From NCBI GenBank assembly GCA_047602425.1, contig JASGHG010000001.1:4896001-4960000 (forward strand): 64,000 nucleotides of DNA, read 5' to 3'. Below are positions 51,568 to 60,815 of the stretch, in pieces. Source of the DNA: Nibricoccus sp. (GTDB lineage: Bacteria > Verrucomicrobiota > Verrucomicrobiia > Opitutales > Opitutaceae). The position numbers and the translations under genes are program-made. The notes beneath the pieces were generated by a model that saw nothing but the letters and a program-made list of their open reading frames with translations, was not told the DNA's origin and did not search any database. Every line of letters starts with the position of its first letter. The stretch's first letter is position 1.

Positions 51568-53007
51568 TCACGGCGTGGGCTTGTCCACCATCTGCATGAT
51601 CGGCAGGCGCATTTCGAAAATTGCGCCGCCCTCCGAACCGTTGCGCACACTCACCTTGCCGCCGTGGGCTTCGACGATGGCACGGACCAAACTCAGTCCC
51701 AGGCCTAAACCGCTTTGCGAACGGCTCTGGTCGCCGCGGTAAAGGCGTTCCCAAATGCGCGGCTGCTCGGCTTCCGGCACGCCGGGCCCCGTATCGCGCA
51801 CAGCGAGCACTGCTTCATCCGTATGCTGCGACAAACTTAACGAAACACTGCCGCCTTCCGGCGTGTACTTTATCGCATTGTCGATCAAGTTGGCCACCGC
51901 TTGCCGAACTCTTACCAAATCGACAACAACCGGTACGCCGGCGCCTTCTTCAAAGTTCAATTTAAGCTGTTTTGCCTCGGCCACATCCGAATAAAGTTCC
52001 ACGGCCTGCCCGACGAGTAACCGCAGATCGGTCTGCTCTTTATTCAGGCGCAACATGCCGGCCTCCGCCTCGGAAATTTCCATCAAGGCGCGCAACAGCC
52101 GCAGCACTTCGTCGGACCGCTCCACGCAATCGGCCAGTGCATCGCGCGCGTTTTTCTCTATTCCCGGCAGGCTCAATGCCAGCTCCGCAGTGCCGCGCAT
52201 GCTCGTCAACGGCGTGCGCAAATCATGGGCGACATTGTCGAGGGCTTCGCGCATCGCGCGGAGGAGCGCCGCGTTTTTGTCCAGCACGTTGTTAAAATAA
52301 CGCACCAACTCCGCGATATCGTCGTCGCGCTTCGGCTCGGGCACGCGGACATCCAGCGCGCCTGTATTGATGATGCGTCGGGCTGTTTCGACCACCTGCC
52401 GCAGTGGTCTGGTCGCCCGTCGCGCCGCCAGAACCGAGACAGCAAAACCCACCAAAATCGCCGCGCTCGCAACCCACATAAAGATGCGGCGCAAGGGTTC
52501 CAAGAGCGTCGCACGATTGTCCGTGGTACGACCGACCTGGAGCAGAAGCCCGTTCGATAGCTGGGCCGAGACCACGACAAGGTCGCGCTGTTCGTCGCGC
52601 GGCACGCGCACGCCATAGATTTTCCGGATCGTCCAGCCACCCCAACCATCCGGTATCGCCACCCGTCTTTCGTCCTGATCGATCCAGTCGGGCGGCACGC
52701 GTCCCCAAACTATGTCTCCGTTCGGGGCAAGCATGCGTGCATAAGTGGAGCGCACATGCGGCGCGTCACTATCGTCGTCAATGCGCTGATCCAGTCCGCG
52801 CACGCCTCTCGCCTCGAAAATGTCGGCGTACTGCTGAAGGCGCAGCCGCAAGGCCTCGATTTCGCGCGTTTCCAATTGTTGCCCGAGCAGAAAATACAGC
52901 AGCGCAAAAATCGCCGTGAAGCCCGCGGCGAACAACACGGTGAACCAAAGGCTCAGCCGCAGCGCGACAGATCGGCGCAAGTGATTAATTTTGCCCGTGA
53001 ATGACAT
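51568..53007 (-). CDS. HAMP sensor histidine kinase (CusS/BaeS-like)
   Basis: Two TM helices, HAMP, AHDLRTP, NLIDNAIKY, DTGPG, GLGLGL. Confidence 0.93.
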   Translation of the reverse strand: MSFTGKINHLRRSVALRLSLWFTVLFAAGFTAIFALLYFLLGQQLETREIEALRLRLQQYADIFEARGVRGLDQRIDDDSDAPHVRSTYARMLAPNGDIVWGRVPPDWIDQDERRVAIPDGWGGWTIRKIYGVRVPRDEQRDLVVVSAQLSNGLLLQVGRTTDNRATLLEPLRRIFMWVASAAILVGFAVSVLAARRATRPLRQVVETARRIINTGALDVRVPEPKRDDDIAELVRYFNNVLDKNAALLRAMREALDNVAHDLRTPLTSMRGTAELALSLPGIEKNARDALADCVERSDEVLRLLRALMEISEAEAGMLRLNKEQTDLRLLVGQAVELYSDVAEAKQLKLNFEEGAGVPVVVDLVRVRQAVANLIDNAIKYTPEGGSVSLSLSQHTDEAVLAVRDTGPGVPEAEQPRIWERLYRGDQSRSQSGLGLGLSLVRAIVEAHGGKVSVRNGSEGGAIFEMRLPIMQMVDKPTP

Positions 53008-53656
53008 AGCCGACGCCGCGGACCGTTTCGATACGCGTCTTTTCCGGATCAATTTTATTGCGCAGCCGGTGCATGAGCACGTCGACCACGTTGGTCTGCG
53101 GATCGAAACTGTAATCCCAGACGTGCTCCAAGATCATGGTTTTGGTCACGGCCCGCTCCGGATGACGCATGAGGTATTCAAGCAAGGAAAACTCTCGTGG
53201 TTGCAACTCCACCGTACGGCCACCCACGCTCACCGAGCGTGCCACGAGATCCATTTCCACGTCGCCGACCTTGAGTCGCGTCGCTTCCGGCACCCGCGTC
53301 GAGCGTCGGATCAGGGCCTGGAGTCTGGCAGATAGTTCGGCAAACGCGAAGGGCTTGGTCAGGTAATCGTCGCCGCCGGCCTGGAGTCCCGCGATCCGGT
53401 CCTGCACATTCGAACGCGCGCTGAGGAAAAGCACCGGCAGGGCGGCGCGGTTCGCCCGAATGCGTTTCACCAAACTCAGCCCGTCCAGCCCCGGCAACAT
53501 CACGTCGACGACGGCCGCGTCATAGGGCGTGGTGGTGGTGAGTGCGAGACCGGTGTCGCCATCGGGAGCGTGATCGACGGCGTAACCTTCCTGCTTGAGT
53601 CCTTTGACTACAAACGAGGCGATTTTGGCATCATCTTCGACAACGAGAATTCTCAC
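52985..53656 (-). CDS. OmpR-family response regulator (CusR-like)
   Basis: ILVVEDD, DVMLP, DDYLTKPF, PQTNVVDV, TVRGVGY. Confidence 0.95.
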   Translation of the reverse strand: MRILVVEDDAKIASFVVKGLKQEGYAVDHAPDGDTGLALTTTTPYDAAVVDVMLPGLDGLSLVKRIRANRAALPVLFLSARSNVQDRIAGLQAGGDDYLTKPFAFAELSARLQALIRRSTRVPEATRLKVGDVEMDLVARSVSVGGRTVELQPREFSLLEYLMRHPERAVTKTMILEHVWDYSFDPQTNVVDVLMHRLRNKIDPEKTRIETVRGVGYVIHGQN

Positions 53657-53830
53657 AGGATGAAAATTTGCGGAGGAAACCGGGTTAATAAACCTAAAAA
53701 TGGGAACTCATCGCAAGCAAACCGCGCTTGGTCAGGTTCGGCTTTGGTCGAGCCTGCCTGACCGATCGACGTTCCAGACCAAGCAATGCCGAACCGGCCG
53801 GAGCAAGCTCCGACCGTGCCCTTCAGGAAG

Positions 53831-53861
53831 AAAAAGCGCCCCGGAATTTCGTCCGGGGCGC
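53831..53861 (-). terminator. Rho-independent terminator after degQ
   Basis: aaaaa, then gcgccccgga-atttcg-tccggggcgc. Confidence 0.8.
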
Positions 53862-53929
53862 CGTCCTATGCGTTAGTTTAGGTTTTTTGTTTTAGTTTAT
53901 GACGGGCAAGGCGTGTTCACAGTGCCGCC

Positions 53930-55462
53930 TTACTCGCCAGATTCGTCGACCACGATGTAACGCGTGCCACGCGGGTTCCAGACCCTGAGGAGCGTTTTGG
54001 GTGTTTCTGTTTTCTCGGTCAGTTTGATGGCATCTTCAGCCGAGCGAACAGGCTTGTGATTGATTTCCTGGATTACGTCACCGGGCTGCAGACCGGCGGC
54101 CGCGGCAGCAGAAGAAGGATCGACCTCGGTAACGATTGCACCACGTACCTTGGCCGGGATGTCAAATTCCCCACGCATCCCCTGATCTAGATCGGCAACA
54201 CCAACCCCATTCAGTGTGCCTTCATCTTCTTCGCTGCCGGGCGCCGTCTTACCCTTGGAAATTTTTTCTCCCGGCATATCGCCCACTTTCACTTTGATTT
54301 CCATCGTCTTGCCTTCACGCAGCACCTGCAAATTCGCATCTGCGCCAGGTGCAATGGTTGCCACTGCAAATTTCAAGCTGCGGCCGTCGGCAACTTTCTT
54401 GCCATTAATTTGAGTGACAACGTCACCGCTCTTGACGCCCGCCTTTTCCGCCGGGCTTCCAGCCACCACTTCGCTGACCAATGCACCGCTTTTGGCTTTC
54501 AACTTGAAGCTATCGACAAGCTCCGGTGTGAGGTCCTGCAAGCCCACGCCCAAATAACCGCGAACGATTTTGCCGCCACTCACCAGCTGCTCCATTACGC
54601 TGCGAGCCCAATTGGCTGGAATCGCAAAGCCAATGCCTTGAAATCCGCCCGATCGGCTGAGGATGGCTGTGTTAATGCCAACCAATCGTCCCTGTACGTC
54701 GACAAGCGCACCACCGGAATTGCCGGGGTTGATCGCTGCGTCCGTCTGGATGAAATTCTGATAGGTCAGCCCAAGTTCTTCCTGCGCACGGCCAAGACCA
54801 CTGACCATGCCGCTGGTCACCGTCTGGCCGATGCCGAAAGGGTTGCCGATTGCGAGCACGCGATCACCCACCTCGATCTTTTCGCTATCGCTAAACGTGA
54901 TCGCGGGCAGGTCTTTGGCTTCGATTTTGATCACAGCGAGGTCGGACTTGTCATCCGTACCAATCACTTTGGCCGTTTGCTCACGCCCGTCTGCAAGCGT
55001 GACCTTGATCACGTCCGCGCCGTTTACCACATGGTAGTTGGTTAGAATGTAACCATCGGTGCTCACAATCACGCCGGACCCAAGACCCTGCTGTTGGGGA
55101 ATGCGATTCATCCGGTTCCGGCCGCGACCGCCACCGTTGCCATTTCCGCCGAAGGGATCGCCAAAGAAGTGGCGGAACATGGGATCATCGAAAAAGGGAT
55201 TCATTTCCTGCATCGGCACGTTTTTCGCACGTTCCGTGACGAGAACTTTCACGACGCTGGGCGCCACGCGTTTCACCACGGGGGAGAAGCTGGCGACCTC
55301 GATCTTGTCGGAGCGCACGATGGCTTGCTCGTCGACTTTGACCGAAACTTTGGACTGCTCGCCAAACGCGGCGCCGGACAAAGCCAAGCCTCCCGCGGCG
55401 AGAATTGCGCCGCTGAGCAACCAGGAAAAGCGATGTTGGAAGAAAAAGCTTAGTGATTTCAT
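53930..55462 (-). CDS. degQ: DegP/DegQ (HtrA, Do family) serine protease with two PDZ domains
   Basis: GSGVIV, TNYHV, DLAV, QTDAAINPGNSGG, GIGFAIP, two PDZ domains. Confidence 0.93.
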   Translation of the reverse strand: MKSLSFFFQHRFSWLLSGAILAAGGLALSGAAFGEQSKVSVKVDEQAIVRSDKIEVASFSPVVKRVAPSVVKVLVTERAKNVPMQEMNPFFDDPMFRHFFGDPFGGNGNGGGRGRNRMNRIPQQQGLGSGVIVSTDGYILTNYHVVNGADVIKVTLADGREQTAKVIGTDDKSDLAVIKIEAKDLPAITFSDSEKIEVGDRVLAIGNPFGIGQTVTSGMVSGLGRAQEELGLTYQNFIQTDAAINPGNSGGALVDVQGRLVGINTAILSRSGGFQGIGFAIPANWARSVMEQLVSGGKIVRGYLGVGLQDLTPELVDSFKLKAKSGALVSEVVAGSPAEKAGVKSGDVVTQINGKKVADGRSLKFAVATIAPGADANLQVLREGKTMEIKVKVGDMPGEKISKGKTAPGSEEDEGTLNGVGVADLDQGMRGEFDIPAKVRGAIVTEVDPSSAAAAAGLQPGDVIQEINHKPVRSAEDAIKLTEKTETPKTLLRVWNPRGTRYIVVDESGE

Positions 55463-55723: not shown

Positions 55724-55886
55724 ACTGTTTGCTTGGTACAATTTTCCCCAGGCCTTTGAACGGGTTTTGCGGGCAGGCTAATAGAGGGTTCACGCCGACT
55801 GCGGAGGTTAAGCATGGGCAAACGCGGCGCTTTCCTTTTCGGGAAACATGGGCATCTTCCCTCTGGCGGCATCATGCCGCGCTAGT

Positions 55887-57479
55887 ATGAGCAAGATTAT
55901 CCGATTCGATTCCAGCGCAGCCGCGCAACCCGAGCCCGCTCCTGATTTTTCCGCGCTTATCAGCGAATTTCAGCACGCCAGCGGCAGCGTTCTTGCCCCA
56001 ATTTCGCGCGACGAGCGCCCGCTCTATGGCCAGACGGTTTACATCGCCAATTGCTCGCTCGACACGCGGTTTGGCCCTTTCCACGCGTATATTTTTCAGT
56101 GCATTATCGACAAGCACTACATCATCGCTCTCGCGTACGGCGATATCGTCAACTCCAAGCTTCTCTACACCCGGCTGCATTCTTCCTGCGTCACGAGCGA
56201 AACGCTCCGGGGCTGCGACTGCGACTGTGTGCAGCAACTTGAAGGCGCTTTCAAAGTCATCTCGGAAAAAGGCCACGGCATCCTTTTCTACCTGATGCAG
56301 GAAGGACGCGGCGTCGGGTATGCAGCCAAGGCACGCGATCGTATGCTAGTGCAGGCTTCGCTCGACCAGTTGTCGACCTTCCAGGCTTACGCCGCGATGG
56401 GACTGAAAAAGGACCACCGCAATTACGACAACATTTCGCAAATCTGCTATCTCCTCGGGATCAAGGCGTCCTTCGTGGTGCTCACGAATAATCCTGAAAA
56501 AGTCGACGCGCTCAGGGCCCAGGGACTGCATGTCGCCCGCACCGAACCGCTCGAATTCGAACCTTCGCCCTTCAACCTGGCCTACCTCACGTCCAAGGCC
56601 GCCGGCGGCCACATTCTCACGCGTCCCGCCGAATCGACGCTCAAGCGCGCCCTGCCACCCGAACCAGTCATTCCCTTCAAACCCTTTGCACTGCCCGCGG
56701 CCCGCCGGTTTATTTATTCGGCAAACTATTTTCTACCGGTAAAACCGGTGGACAACGACATCCTCCTCACCGAGGAACAGTTCAAGGAACTTTTCAAAAA
56801 GAAATCGATCGACCGTTACATGGCCGGTCCCAAGCCGCTGGTGCTCGGCTACCAGTTGATCCGCGACAATCGGTTTTTCGTCAAAATCGCCCCGGACAAC
56901 TTGAACGCTTTCAAGCACGGGAATCCGCACGACCCGATCCTCGACCTGCTCACGACGCCGTATTGGTTTCGTGTCCACGTTTACTACGACATTGTAACGT
57001 CGCAGGAGTTCGTCGTTCTCACTCACGGCAAGCCCCGCGCCTTCGACATACCGGTCGTGCGTCTGCACAGCGAATCGCTTTTCAACCGTTTCCCCCTGCG
57101 CAGCGTCGACAACCGCGACAAGTTCAAGAAATCCGTCAAACACATCGTCACCTACGGCGTGGGAGCCATCATGCTTTTGTATTACGATGGGCGCGGAGCC
57201 GGCTTCGGCGCGTACGCCACCGACTTGATGATGATGGAAACCGCCCAGGCCGGAACCAGCGACGAGGCCTACCAAAAAATCGGCGTCGGTTACGACAGCC
57301 GCGACTACGAGGCTTCGATGCTTCTCCTGCGTCATCACATACCCAATGAAAAGATACAAATGGTGATGAATTCCCCCGCGAGTCTGGTGAAAAAGAAGGA
57401 ATACTCCTCCGCGCTCAACAACCACCACATCGACGTCGAAAAATGGATCTTCCTCGACGATTCGTCGCTGAGTGAATGA
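55887..57479 (+). CDS. GTP cyclohydrolase II-like protein with two tandem GCH II domains (second degenerate)
   Basis: Domain 1: RLHSSC...CDC, QEGRG, DHRNY, LTNNPEK, YLTSK...GH. Domain 2: RLHSES, YDGRG, DSRDY, MNSP, with no Cys. Confidence 0.85.
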   Translation: MSKIIRFDSSAAAQPEPAPDFSALISEFQHASGSVLAPISRDERPLYGQTVYIANCSLDTRFGPFHAYIFQCIIDKHYIIALAYGDIVNSKLLYTRLHSSCVTSETLRGCDCDCVQQLEGAFKVISEKGHGILFYLMQEGRGVGYAAKARDRMLVQASLDQLSTFQAYAAMGLKKDHRNYDNISQICYLLGIKASFVVLTNNPEKVDALRAQGLHVARTEPLEFEPSPFNLAYLTSKAAGGHILTRPAESTLKRALPPEPVIPFKPFALPAARRFIYSANYFLPVKPVDNDILLTEEQFKELFKKKSIDRYMAGPKPLVLGYQLIRDNRFFVKIAPDNLNAFKHGNPHDPILDLLTTPYWFRVHVYYDIVTSQEFVVLTHGKPRAFDIPVVRLHSESLFNRFPLRSVDNRDKFKKSVKHIVTYGVGAIMLLYYDGRGAGFGAYATDLMMMETAQAGTSDEAYQKIGVGYDSRDYEASMLLLRHHIPNEKIQMVMNSPASLVKKKEYSSALNNHHIDVEKWIFLDDSSLSE

Positions 57480-57537: not shown

Positions 57538-58455
57538 ATGAGAATGCAGTCCCGTTTGTTCACCGTTCTAGGCCTTTTCATTGCTCTTTTCGTGGAATCC
57601 CACGCAGGAACCGTTGACGATTCTGCCGCTCTTTTTGGAAATCGTCTCGAAGAAGTCCGTTTGGCTTTGGCCGATCTGCCGGTCTCCATTGAGACACGCC
57701 AAACAGCTCCTTCCGAGGGCCTGCGCGTGTACGCCGACCGACGCGTGAACGAGGAATTTAACCGCGGCTTTGTCGTGGTGATCGCCACCCAACCGCGCGG
57801 CTGGAGAATCAGCATGAACCCGCAGTCCCTTGCGTCTCCAGAATATGTGCGCGTTCTCGGCGATCGCATGGCAGCCGATTTCAAGCGTGGTCGCTACGTC
57901 GAGGGAGCAACGCAGCTCGCCACGTCGCTCAACCAACTTACGCTTTCAAGGGCCGTTCCATCGTCGGAGGTCGCAAAAGCTCCCGTCTACGTCCCACAGC
58001 CACCCAAACCAGTCGTCACCTACCCGCCAGTACGACCGCCGGTTCAACCTTCCCCGTGGGGAGCGTTTTTTTTCGTAGTGTTTTTCGGCATTCTCGCGAT
58101 AGGGATGATGGTGTTCTTTCGATATAAGATGCGGAAGTTCGATCTAGTCAGCCCGCCCAGCAGTCCGGAAGACGCTCGCCGTATCTTCGATGCATACACG
58201 CCGGCGCAGCGCGCACGCCTTGCGTCCCGTAACGCCCCGCATGCGGCTGGCGACCCCGTCAACGACCCAATGGCTTTCGCGCTGATGATGTACGTCGTAC
58301 AACAAGACAGCATGTCGCATATCACTTCAAACTCATCGCCGCTTGATGTAACAACTCCAACGGTCCCACCCTCGTTTGATAGCGGCAGCTCCTCCATTTC
58401 CTCGTCGATATCGACAAGCAGCAGCGACTCCTCCGGCGCGAGCGGCAGCTGGTGA
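57538..58455 (+). CDS. TPM (DUF477)-like membrane protein
   Basis: Signal peptide, GFVVVIA...FKRGRYVEG, one TM helix, tail ending GASGSW; start uncertain (57472 or 57538). Confidence 0.6.
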   Translation: MRMQSRLFTVLGLFIALFVESHAGTVDDSAALFGNRLEEVRLALADLPVSIETRQTAPSEGLRVYADRRVNEEFNRGFVVVIATQPRGWRISMNPQSLASPEYVRVLGDRMAADFKRGRYVEGATQLATSLNQLTLSRAVPSSEVAKAPVYVPQPPKPVVTYPPVRPPVQPSPWGAFFFVVFFGILAIGMMVFFRYKMRKFDLVSPPSSPEDARRIFDAYTPAQRARLASRNAPHAAGDPVNDPMAFALMMYVVQQDSMSHITSNSSPLDVTTPTVPPSFDSGSSSISSSISTSSSDSSGASGSW

Positions 58456-58465
58456 AAAACTTCCG

Positions 58466-59548
58466 GTGACTGCCGTTCCCCAATCCGCCGATCCGTTCGG
58501 CCACAGCCTTCTAGCACGCCGTCTGGAGCAAATTCCCGCGACGCTCGCCGCCATGTTGGAGCGCGGTCCGGCCCCGTTAAAAATGGCCACGCTGGCATCT
58601 GGACGCTTCATCATCACCGGCACCGGCAGCTCCGAGGCTCATGCCCGCTACCTCACGATGCTGCTCAATCTTCACACCGGCCGTTCCGCTGCCTATTTAC
58701 CGCTGTCCGGTTTTACCGCCCAACATAAAAGCGCGTTTGCCGGCAAAACCCTCGTTGTCTTCAGCCAGGGTCTCTCCCCCAACGCCCAACTTTCCTTTCG
58801 CCGGCGTAGTGACTTTTCTCATACGGTACTTTTCACCGCCACCACGCCGTCGACCGCCCGGGCCGCCGGCAAACACGACCGAGCCGCGCTTCTTCAGCAA
58901 TTTCTCGACGAAGGCGGCGACCTGATCGAGTTTCCGCTCGCCGAGGAATACACGACGCTCATCCGCTTCGTGGGTCCAATGGCGGGTTATCTGGCCTGCC
59001 TGCAATTCACCGCGCAACTTTCCTGCTGCCGATTCAAAGTGCCACCCACGGCTGAGATTCTGCGCCTGCTCAATTCGCAGCCACCAAGCGAGCTTCTCGA
59101 AGCCATGCTGCAGACGCCCGCGCGTTTTGCGGCAGGATTTTCACTCGTCACCGCCGCGCCCATTTCGGAGTTCGCCCAAAATCTCGCCTGCAAATTCATG
59201 GAAGGTCTTTTTTGGCTCTGTCCACCTGTCTCGGATTTCCTGCAGTTTGCCCACGGCCCTTTCCAGCAAACCGCCGCCCGTCCGCACCCCGTCGTCATTC
59301 TGCAAGGCGATGCGCCGGTCGAGGTCGAATTGGTCAGCCGCAGCCTCGCCATGCTGCGCACCATCGGACTTGACGCCTACGTGATTAAAATCGACGCACC
59401 TCCGCTCATCTCGATTTTCGGCTTTGAAGCCGCGCTCAATCAAATCGTTATTACCCTTATAAAACAGTTCGGCATCGATCAGGTCAACTGGCCTGGCAAA
59501 GGCCGCGACGACCAGCTGTACGGCTTTTGCAGCGACACAGGTTCTTAG
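58466..59548 (+). CDS. Two-SIS-domain sugar-phosphate isomerase/deglycase-like protein (GlmS C-terminal/FrlB-like)
   Basis: ITGTGSS, VFSQG, KFMEG, QFAHGP; GTG start inferred. Confidence 0.7.
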   Translation: MTAVPQSADPFGHSLLARRLEQIPATLAAMLERGPAPLKMATLASGRFIITGTGSSEAHARYLTMLLNLHTGRSAAYLPLSGFTAQHKSAFAGKTLVVFSQGLSPNAQLSFRRRSDFSHTVLFTATTPSTARAAGKHDRAALLQQFLDEGGDLIEFPLAEEYTTLIRFVGPMAGYLACLQFTAQLSCCRFKVPPTAEILRLLNSQPPSELLEAMLQTPARFAAGFSLVTAAPISEFAQNLACKFMEGLFWLCPPVSDFLQFAHGPFQQTAARPHPVVILQGDAPVEVELVSRSLAMLRTIGLDAYVIKIDAPPLISIFGFEAALNQIVITLIKQFGIDQVNWPGKGRDDQLYGFCSDTGS

Positions 59549-60333: not shown

Positions 60334-60421
60334 GGCGTGCATCAAACATTAACCTGAATCCCAGATAATCAACGGGAAATGCAGGCCACAAAGGGTGGAA
60401 AAAATCCTTGCGAAGAAGGGA

Positions 60422-60450
60422 TTGACAGCGCCGTTGGAGGCCGTGAAATT
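60422..60450 (+). promoter_or_regulatory. Candidate sigma70 promoter for tRNA-His
   Basis: TTGACA at 60422-60427 with a weak -10 (tgaaatt) just upstream of the tRNA. Confidence 0.45.
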
Positions 60451-60464
60451 CGCCGACCTTTTAC

Positions 60465-60542
60465 GGCGGTCATAGCTCAGTTGGTTAGAGCACAAGATTG
60501 TGGATCTTGGGGTCGCGGGTTCGAATCCCGTTGGCCGCCCCA
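60465..60542 (+). tRNA. tRNA-His (GTG)
   Basis: G-1, acceptor stem GCGGTCA/TGGCCGC, D arm, anticodon stem CAAGA/TCTTG with GTG, GTTCGAATC T loop, C73 and encoded CCA. Confidence 0.97.
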
Positions 60543-60815
60543 TTTTTGGGAGGACTGGGAGGGTTAAGGCGGAGGGCAAATCACGGATCACCTAACTCCC
60601 GGGATGAGAATTTGCGAAGCGGTTAGACGCAGCGAGCAACATTTCTCAAATGCGTCCGCCGCCTTCTGGACGCGGGAAAAAATCCATTCCGACGCGCGCC
60701 CAAGCCACGCCGCACTGAATGCGCCGCTTGTTCAGCAGAACTACGGAGGTCCTAGCCCGGTAGTGCGGGTTGCGCCGTTGGGAGAAACGGCGCGATGTTT
60801 CAAAATTCCAGCAAC

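Follow-up and report, generated by a model that had tools for sequence, protein, structure and literature searches.

RibA, the GTP cyclohydrolase II (GCH II) of Escherichia coli, works as a dimer, and its Tyr105 is required for formate release. SCO6655 of Streptomyces coelicolor, reportedly a single-domain protein with Met at the Tyr105 position, has lost the equivalent of this tyrosine and is said to stop at the formylated product, thereby combining a GCH II scaffold with GCH III activity. Purine breakdown is usually taken to run via xanthine and urate. According to excerpts of a review, ring opening by RibA proceeds via a GMP intermediate, and the third RibA paralogue of S. coelicolor has a new, non-flavin function (PMC13151069). 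Parts of two reports describe the URC pathway, in which uracil serves as a nitrogen source and is broken down by a phosphoribosyltransferase together with an enzyme of GCH II fold (PMC7530994, PMC12507026). No description of a two-domain GCH II family was found in the literature searched, and the available portions of PMC12623156, PMC7288161 and PMC7017516 hold nothing specific on it.

Such a protein is encoded in the 64,000-nucleotide stretch of Nibricoccus sp. DNA analysed here (the window). The gene (55887..57479, plus strand) specifies 530 aa (P0001), and both domains of the product belong to the GCH II fold family (PF00925), as found from the open reading frame, Pfam, alignment to RibA, AlphaFold2 and Foldseek. 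The start at 55887 was preferred to an alternative ATG at 55848 (543 aa) because close homologues are 507–595 aa long, mostly 520–535 aa. Pfam matched GTP_cyclohydro2 (PF00925) twice and no other family, and detected no RibB domain. In a genome-wide search with PF00925, the two stretches scored 129 and 47 bits, each above the cut-off, and the halves of the protein match one another (domain 1 versus domain 2, E=1.5e-10). The GCH II order of strands and helices occurs twice in the AlphaFold2 model (pLDDT 75.8, pTM 0.74, active-site loops below 50). The preliminary description, which had proposed two GCH II folds in about 530 aa with no RibB domain, was thus borne out. With one alignment per target for the whole tandem protein, Foldseek placed RibA first (E=3e-11), followed by RibBA, RibBX and UTP cyclohydrolase.

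Domain 1 (aa 50–245; 56034..56621, plus strand) is the predicted catalytic domain, with zinc triad and phosphate site intact. Residue equivalences were taken from a single alignment to E. coli RibA (2bz0), with which the tandem protein shares its fold and 34% identity. Cysteines C101, C112 and C114 correspond to the zinc ligands C54, C65 and C67, and C110 is additional. EGR lies at 139–141, D176/R178 correspond to D126/R128, and T200/K205 correspond to T149/K154. In 2bz0 numbering, the equivalents of R49, H51, S52, C54, C65, C67, Q70, E92-G93-R94, K101, T114, D126, R128, T149 and K154, residues whose functions in RibA are known, are all retained, so that domain 1 keeps the whole RibA set of EGR, Asp126, Arg128, Thr149 and Lys154. 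The substitutions relative to RibA are E53 to S100, Y105 to R152, Q108 to V155 and N118 to Y168. The three zinc cysteines, extra cysteine, EGR and R128 equivalent noted earlier were therefore all found, and the proposed changes of Tyr105 to Arg and of HSEC to HSSC are confirmed as R152 and S100 respectively. Among 121 close sequences (the query counted), C101, C112, C114, R152 and S100 are invariant.

Domain 2 (aa 275–522; 56709..57452, plus strand) has the GCH II fold, interrupted in the model by an insertion of about 70 aa at 287–358. It contains no cysteine and carries the motifs RLHSES, YDGRG and DSRDY, all as first described. The C-terminal helix with its GH motif, present in domain 1 (228–243), is missing, leaving domain 2 without a C-terminal lid. 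It retains equivalents of R49, E53, D126 and R128. Across the 121 close sequences, R392, S395, D434, G435, D470, R472, D473 and N495 are invariant, E396 is kept in 117, and mean conservation is 0.865 for domain 2 versus 0.896 for domain 1. Zinc cysteines are likewise absent from RibBX (6mnz) and further dead GCH II domains; unlike these, domain 2 shares its chain with a live GCH II-type domain, retains DGRG and forms a branch separate from Opitutaceae RibBX.

Three known enzymes were considered and rejected as identities of the tandem protein. Besides having two domains per chain and the four substitutions, it differs from standard RibA in lacking Tyr105 and in scoring 144.5 bits against the RibA equivalog TIGR00505, below the cut-off of 205.85, although the threshold of the wider subfamily model PRK00393 was passed (178 versus 148). 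Its gene also does not sit among rib genes. UTP cyclohydrolase/URC1 (7ej3, 7eev) is likewise a catabolic GCH II-fold enzyme that opens a nucleobase ring at the nucleotide level, and it is associated with a phosphoribosyltransferase as well as with enzymes freeing sugar and nitrogen. However, it shares only 15–20% identity, has one GCH II domain and a pyrimidine substrate, and is accompanied by URC4 in place of a SIS protein; the tandem protein scored 15.9 bits against the PRK07198 cut-off of 403, and a profile match (E=0.0045) covered residues 92–222 only, with no counterpart of the URC1 N-terminal domain. Archaeal GCH III was rejected since PF05165 matched neither the protein nor any part of the genome. 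By its description, SCO6655 resembles the tandem protein in having lost the Tyr105 equivalent.

Of 1069 protein matches, the best 120 showed 72–95% identity, and all named ones were from Opitutaceae. The full tandem gene is present in 58 of 151 Opitutaceae genomes, a count that leaves out one genome (G015) with a plain RibBA match, and in 16 of 301 genomes from across the phylum (12 Opitutaceae, 3 others of the order and 1 outside it). Deep search added distant tandem forms. A readable motif together with domain 1 and a match to domain 2 was present in 69 of the 157 proteins inspected; domain 2 was full in 32 of these and partial in 37, some of the latter possibly being fragments. In a midpoint-rooted tree of 53 domains picked by hand, domain 1 (95/81) and domain 2 (100/100) each occupied its own side of a branch, separate from RibA and RibBX. 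Judged from these sequences, the tandem protein is a member of an old subfamily and no one-off. The Tyr105 position is occupied by Arg in 44 of the 69 relatives, by Cys in 21, by Leu in 3 and by Asn in 1, and by Tyr in none. Arg itself is thus variable, and the conserved family trait is the absence of Tyr rather than the presence of Arg. The phosphate site of domain 2 appears dispensable in some branches, while the RFP segment is often retained, which fits a structural role.

Several other arrangements of GCH II domains were encountered. P0217, a different protein of 600 aa, matches GCH II twice (313 bits) and, with Tyr kept in its first domain, represents an independent tandem of the canonical type. 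In P0130–P0132, of about 1000 aa, GCH II domains are joined to family-2 glycosyltransferase proteins. The ESM Atlas holds a cluster of 64 GCH II-domain proteins of about 461 aa with a score of 0.93 to the tandem protein; among members with a record, 60% are viral.

The partner genes of the tandem gene had not been noted in the preliminary description. The closest partner lies at about 58466..59548 (plus strand, start codon inferred). This copy has no Pfam match; the ESM Atlas labels the gene SIS-like, and its model (pLDDT 88.3) shows a double-SIS fold, which Foldseek matched to phosphosugar isomerases, NagB-II, GlmS and the FraB deglycase (E 7e-13 to 2e-9). As set out in excerpts of one paper, it is established that all of these form or break a sugar-phosphate-amine bond, and in GlmS/FrlB-type enzymes the catalytic Glu and His lie 16 residues apart (PMC10285752). 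The SIS partner shares with FrlB/FraB, NagB-II and the GlmS isomerase domain the GSS and SQG motifs and a Glu/His pair (E241, H258), all kept in 29 of 29 sequences. It differs from them in its low identity (11–18%) and in a Glu-His spacing of 17 rather than 16. The modelled fold predicts that it acts on a sugar-phosphate-amine bond. The SIS gene was found in 44 of the 58 tandem-positive Opitutaceae genomes, with no match in the other 14, and in none of the 93 tandem-negative ones. Among 80 genome loci and 80 metagenome loci, many of the latter being short contigs, the fetched flanks included it at 45 and 50, respectively. The two genes are moreover fused in 26 of the 69 relatives, six of which, mutually close kin, also include a creatininase domain.

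A creatininase-family gene (514 aa) is located elsewhere in the Nibricoccus genome, at C1:4652432-4653973. Its subfamily matched in 54 of 58 tandem-positive versus 12 of 93 tandem-negative genomes, and all 41 full-length matches came from tandem-positive genomes. It is not a dedicated partner, because 11 of the 12 tandem-negative genomes having it use the urate route. Between the tandem and SIS genes lies an ORF (57538..58455, plus strand) with a predicted membrane segment, a Pro-rich stretch, a Ser-rich tail and a weak TPM match (E=0.016, below cut-off). It occurs at none of 80 related loci and is therefore a likely local insertion outside the module. Upstream of the tandem gene, a divergent block (51568-55462) with a DegP-type protease, a response regulator and a sensor kinase recurs in the closest relative (L004) alone. 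Further downstream, the translation of a minus-strand ORF (60349-60591) resembles a tRNA gene read as protein.

As regards riboflavin, the source genome contains ribD, ribE and ribH. A separate canonical ribBA, which the preliminary description led one to expect, is not there: apart from the tandem gene, PF00925 picks out a single gene, a RibB fusion that lacks EGR and all three zinc cysteines. The tandem protein is thus the sole GCH II homologue of the genome with a zinc triad and could stand in for RibA. It may have GCH III-like activity despite missing the PF05165 fold, and it could supply riboflavin in two steps, releasing a formylated pyrimidine that the creatininase, acting as BrbF or ArfB, would convert to the RibD substrate. 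BrbF is a creatininase-family formamidase that deformylates exactly the expected intermediate, and the enzyme upstream of it is described as still missing (PMC9478397); if the tandem protein makes the formylated precursor, it would be a candidate for that bacterial GCH III. This account is quite improbable. Riboflavin synthase occurs in 149 of 151 Opitutaceae genomes, as against the tandem gene in only 58 and a high-scoring RibA in just five, and about 87 genomes with riboflavin synthase have neither of the latter. In a survey of RibB fusions (41 loci from the top of the list, of which two were unread and three were canonical controls), the GCH II domain lacked the zinc triad in all 19 readable tandem-negative genomes and in all 17 tandem-positive ones. 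Opitutaceae consequently need another entry into riboflavin synthesis, for which the tandem gene is not required, and this gene is not their replacement for the missing RibA. Nor were ribB, ribE or ribH among its recurrent neighbours, the single RibD_C-domain gene being at locus L182, and the SIS partner would have no role in riboflavin synthesis. The fusions themselves (L001:1495-2652 and L104-L139) carry zinc-less GCH II domains, and the first riboflavin enzyme is missing family-wide.

The neighbours of the tandem gene point to purines. At 80 genome loci, an NCS2 permease was found in 41, mostly directly upstream on the same strand, followed by Amidohydro_2 (39), Rid (31), amidase (24), DUF3891 (13), HPRT (9), an NMT1-type binding protein (9), adenine deaminase (6), AMP nucleosidase (4), adenosine deaminase (3) and creatininase (3). 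The nearby deaminases yield hypoxanthine and inosine. Of the 80 loci, 47 carried a permease gene, one or more purine-enzyme genes or both, and locus L182 brings together HPRT, SIS, tandem, DUF3891, two creatininases, a formamidase, Rid, an amidase and an FAH-family hydrolase. Fifteen control loci from tandem-negative genomes contained amidase (13), permease (9) and adenine deaminase (6), but no SIS gene. Most of the neighbours are therefore not specific, since the scavenging locus occurs without the tandem gene, and the tandem-SIS pair sits inside an ancestral purine-scavenging locus. The source genome lacks an NCS2 permease, nothing in it matches the HPRT of the neighbours, and its amidase and Rid genes lie 3.9 Mb from the tandem gene. 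Because the tandem gene travels with SIS-fold and purine-scavenging genes and not with rib genes, it is read as probably acting outside the riboflavin route. The earlier proposal of an altered product or substrate outside that route is thus favoured by context and distribution, although the GCH II half of the genome's RibBA is dead and the tandem protein may contribute to riboflavin.

A stronger sign than the neighbouring genes is the near-exclusion of the tandem gene from genomes with the urate route. OHCU decarboxylase was found in 1 of 58 tandem-positive versus 38 of 93 tandem-negative Opitutaceae genomes, and XdhB in 4 of 58 versus 39 of 93. At the genus level, 21 genera stood against 20 with an overlap of two (p=4e-4), a value that overstates the case, as p-values do here, because the genomes are kin. 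OHCU decarboxylase is also missing from 55 of the 93 tandem-negative genomes, which have neither route.

Since carriers almost never have the textbook enzymes of purine breakdown, an undescribed breakdown of purine nucleotides is likely. By analogy with the UTP-cyclohydrolase uracil pathway, there is about an even chance that the tandem protein is the ring-opening step of such a route. More fully and more tentatively, the route may be a purine counterpart of URC that requires neither molybdenum cofactor nor oxygen and alternates with the xanthine dehydrogenase/urate route across Opitutaceae. In it, the base would be placed onto ribose phosphate, its imidazole ring opened by the single-chain double GCH II, and the product deformylated and cut from the sugar by the FrlB-like deglycase. 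The tandem protein would catalyse the committed step of this breakdown and recycling route, in place of the xanthine dehydrogenase/urate pathway. Domain 1 would strip pyrophosphate from GTP, or use GMP, IMP or XMP-type nucleotides, and open the imidazole ring at the zinc, the formyl group being retained without Tyr105. Guanine specificity is not fixed by EGR, because UTP cyclohydrolase also keeps this motif. The creatininase-family enzyme, fused in some relatives, would then take off formate. The SIS protein would rearrange the product and cleave the ribosyl-amine bond to give ribose 5-phosphate and a free aminopyrimidinone, the nitrogen of which amidases would set free; no enzyme degrading the freed aminopyrimidinone was identified. 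Domain 2 cannot open rings and would probably take the place of the partner subunit in a RibA-like dimer, and a single-chain pseudo-dimer with a defined domain arrangement is plausible from the model (pTM 0.74). More speculatively, domain 2 may bind nucleotide or split pyrophosphate, because it keeps the E53, R49, D126 and R128 equivalents and domain 1 has lost that of E53.

The same three enzymes could also lead to a pterin-type or other GTP-derived product, through ring opening, deformylation, an Amadori shift by the SIS protein and closure to dihydroneopterin monophosphate. The chemistry is sound, in that RibA plus TrpF of Chlamydia achieve the conversion from ring opening to dihydroneopterin monophosphate, as described in part of one report (PMC4161248). 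The source genome encodes FolE2, though FolE was not found in it, and the recurrent neighbours annotated from the 80 genome loci included nothing for pterin, folate or cytochrome. Such a product is unlikely and would also leave the near-exclusion from the urate route unexplained. Very unlikely is a house-cleaning role, in which the enzyme would destroy damaged or non-canonical purine nucleotides (8-oxo-GTP, ITP, XTP or ring-opened forms) and the SIS protein would recover the sugar with no gain of nitrogen. The changed equivalents of E53, Y105, Q108 and N118 could shift the substrate in that direction, Rid protein and deaminases are neighbours, and the module persists in the source genome without the permease. 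However, in many relatives the tandem gene immediately follows an uptake permease gene, which, together with the near-exclusion from the urate route, fits catabolism better.

If purine-nucleotide breakdown is indeed the role of the tandem protein, soil and freshwater bacteria would have a new way to recover nitrogen and ribose from purines via nucleotide ring opening. The annotation of the family in databases as a riboflavin enzyme is probably wrong. Either outcome, catabolic or riboflavin precursor, would be informative. The two-domain anatomy across the family, the control for the missing RibA and the exclusion from the urate route are new.

Two further observations were made. Of the 151 Opitutaceae genomes, 145 carry an Amidohydro_2 gene (L285:10727; G000:C1:4974726-4975505 in the source genome), which usually has an amidase, Rid and a nucleobase permease as neighbours and may serve a conserved step in purine or flavin metabolism. 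One genome without it (G096) is also without ribE and ribBX. At L089:1493-13163, a urea/guanidine-carboxylase-type enzyme, two DUF1989 genes, a NikR-like regulator and a glutamine-synthetase-like gene are clustered with a creatininase and an NMT1-type ABC transporter, which looks like a system that imports and degrades a guanidino compound or a related nitrogen compound.
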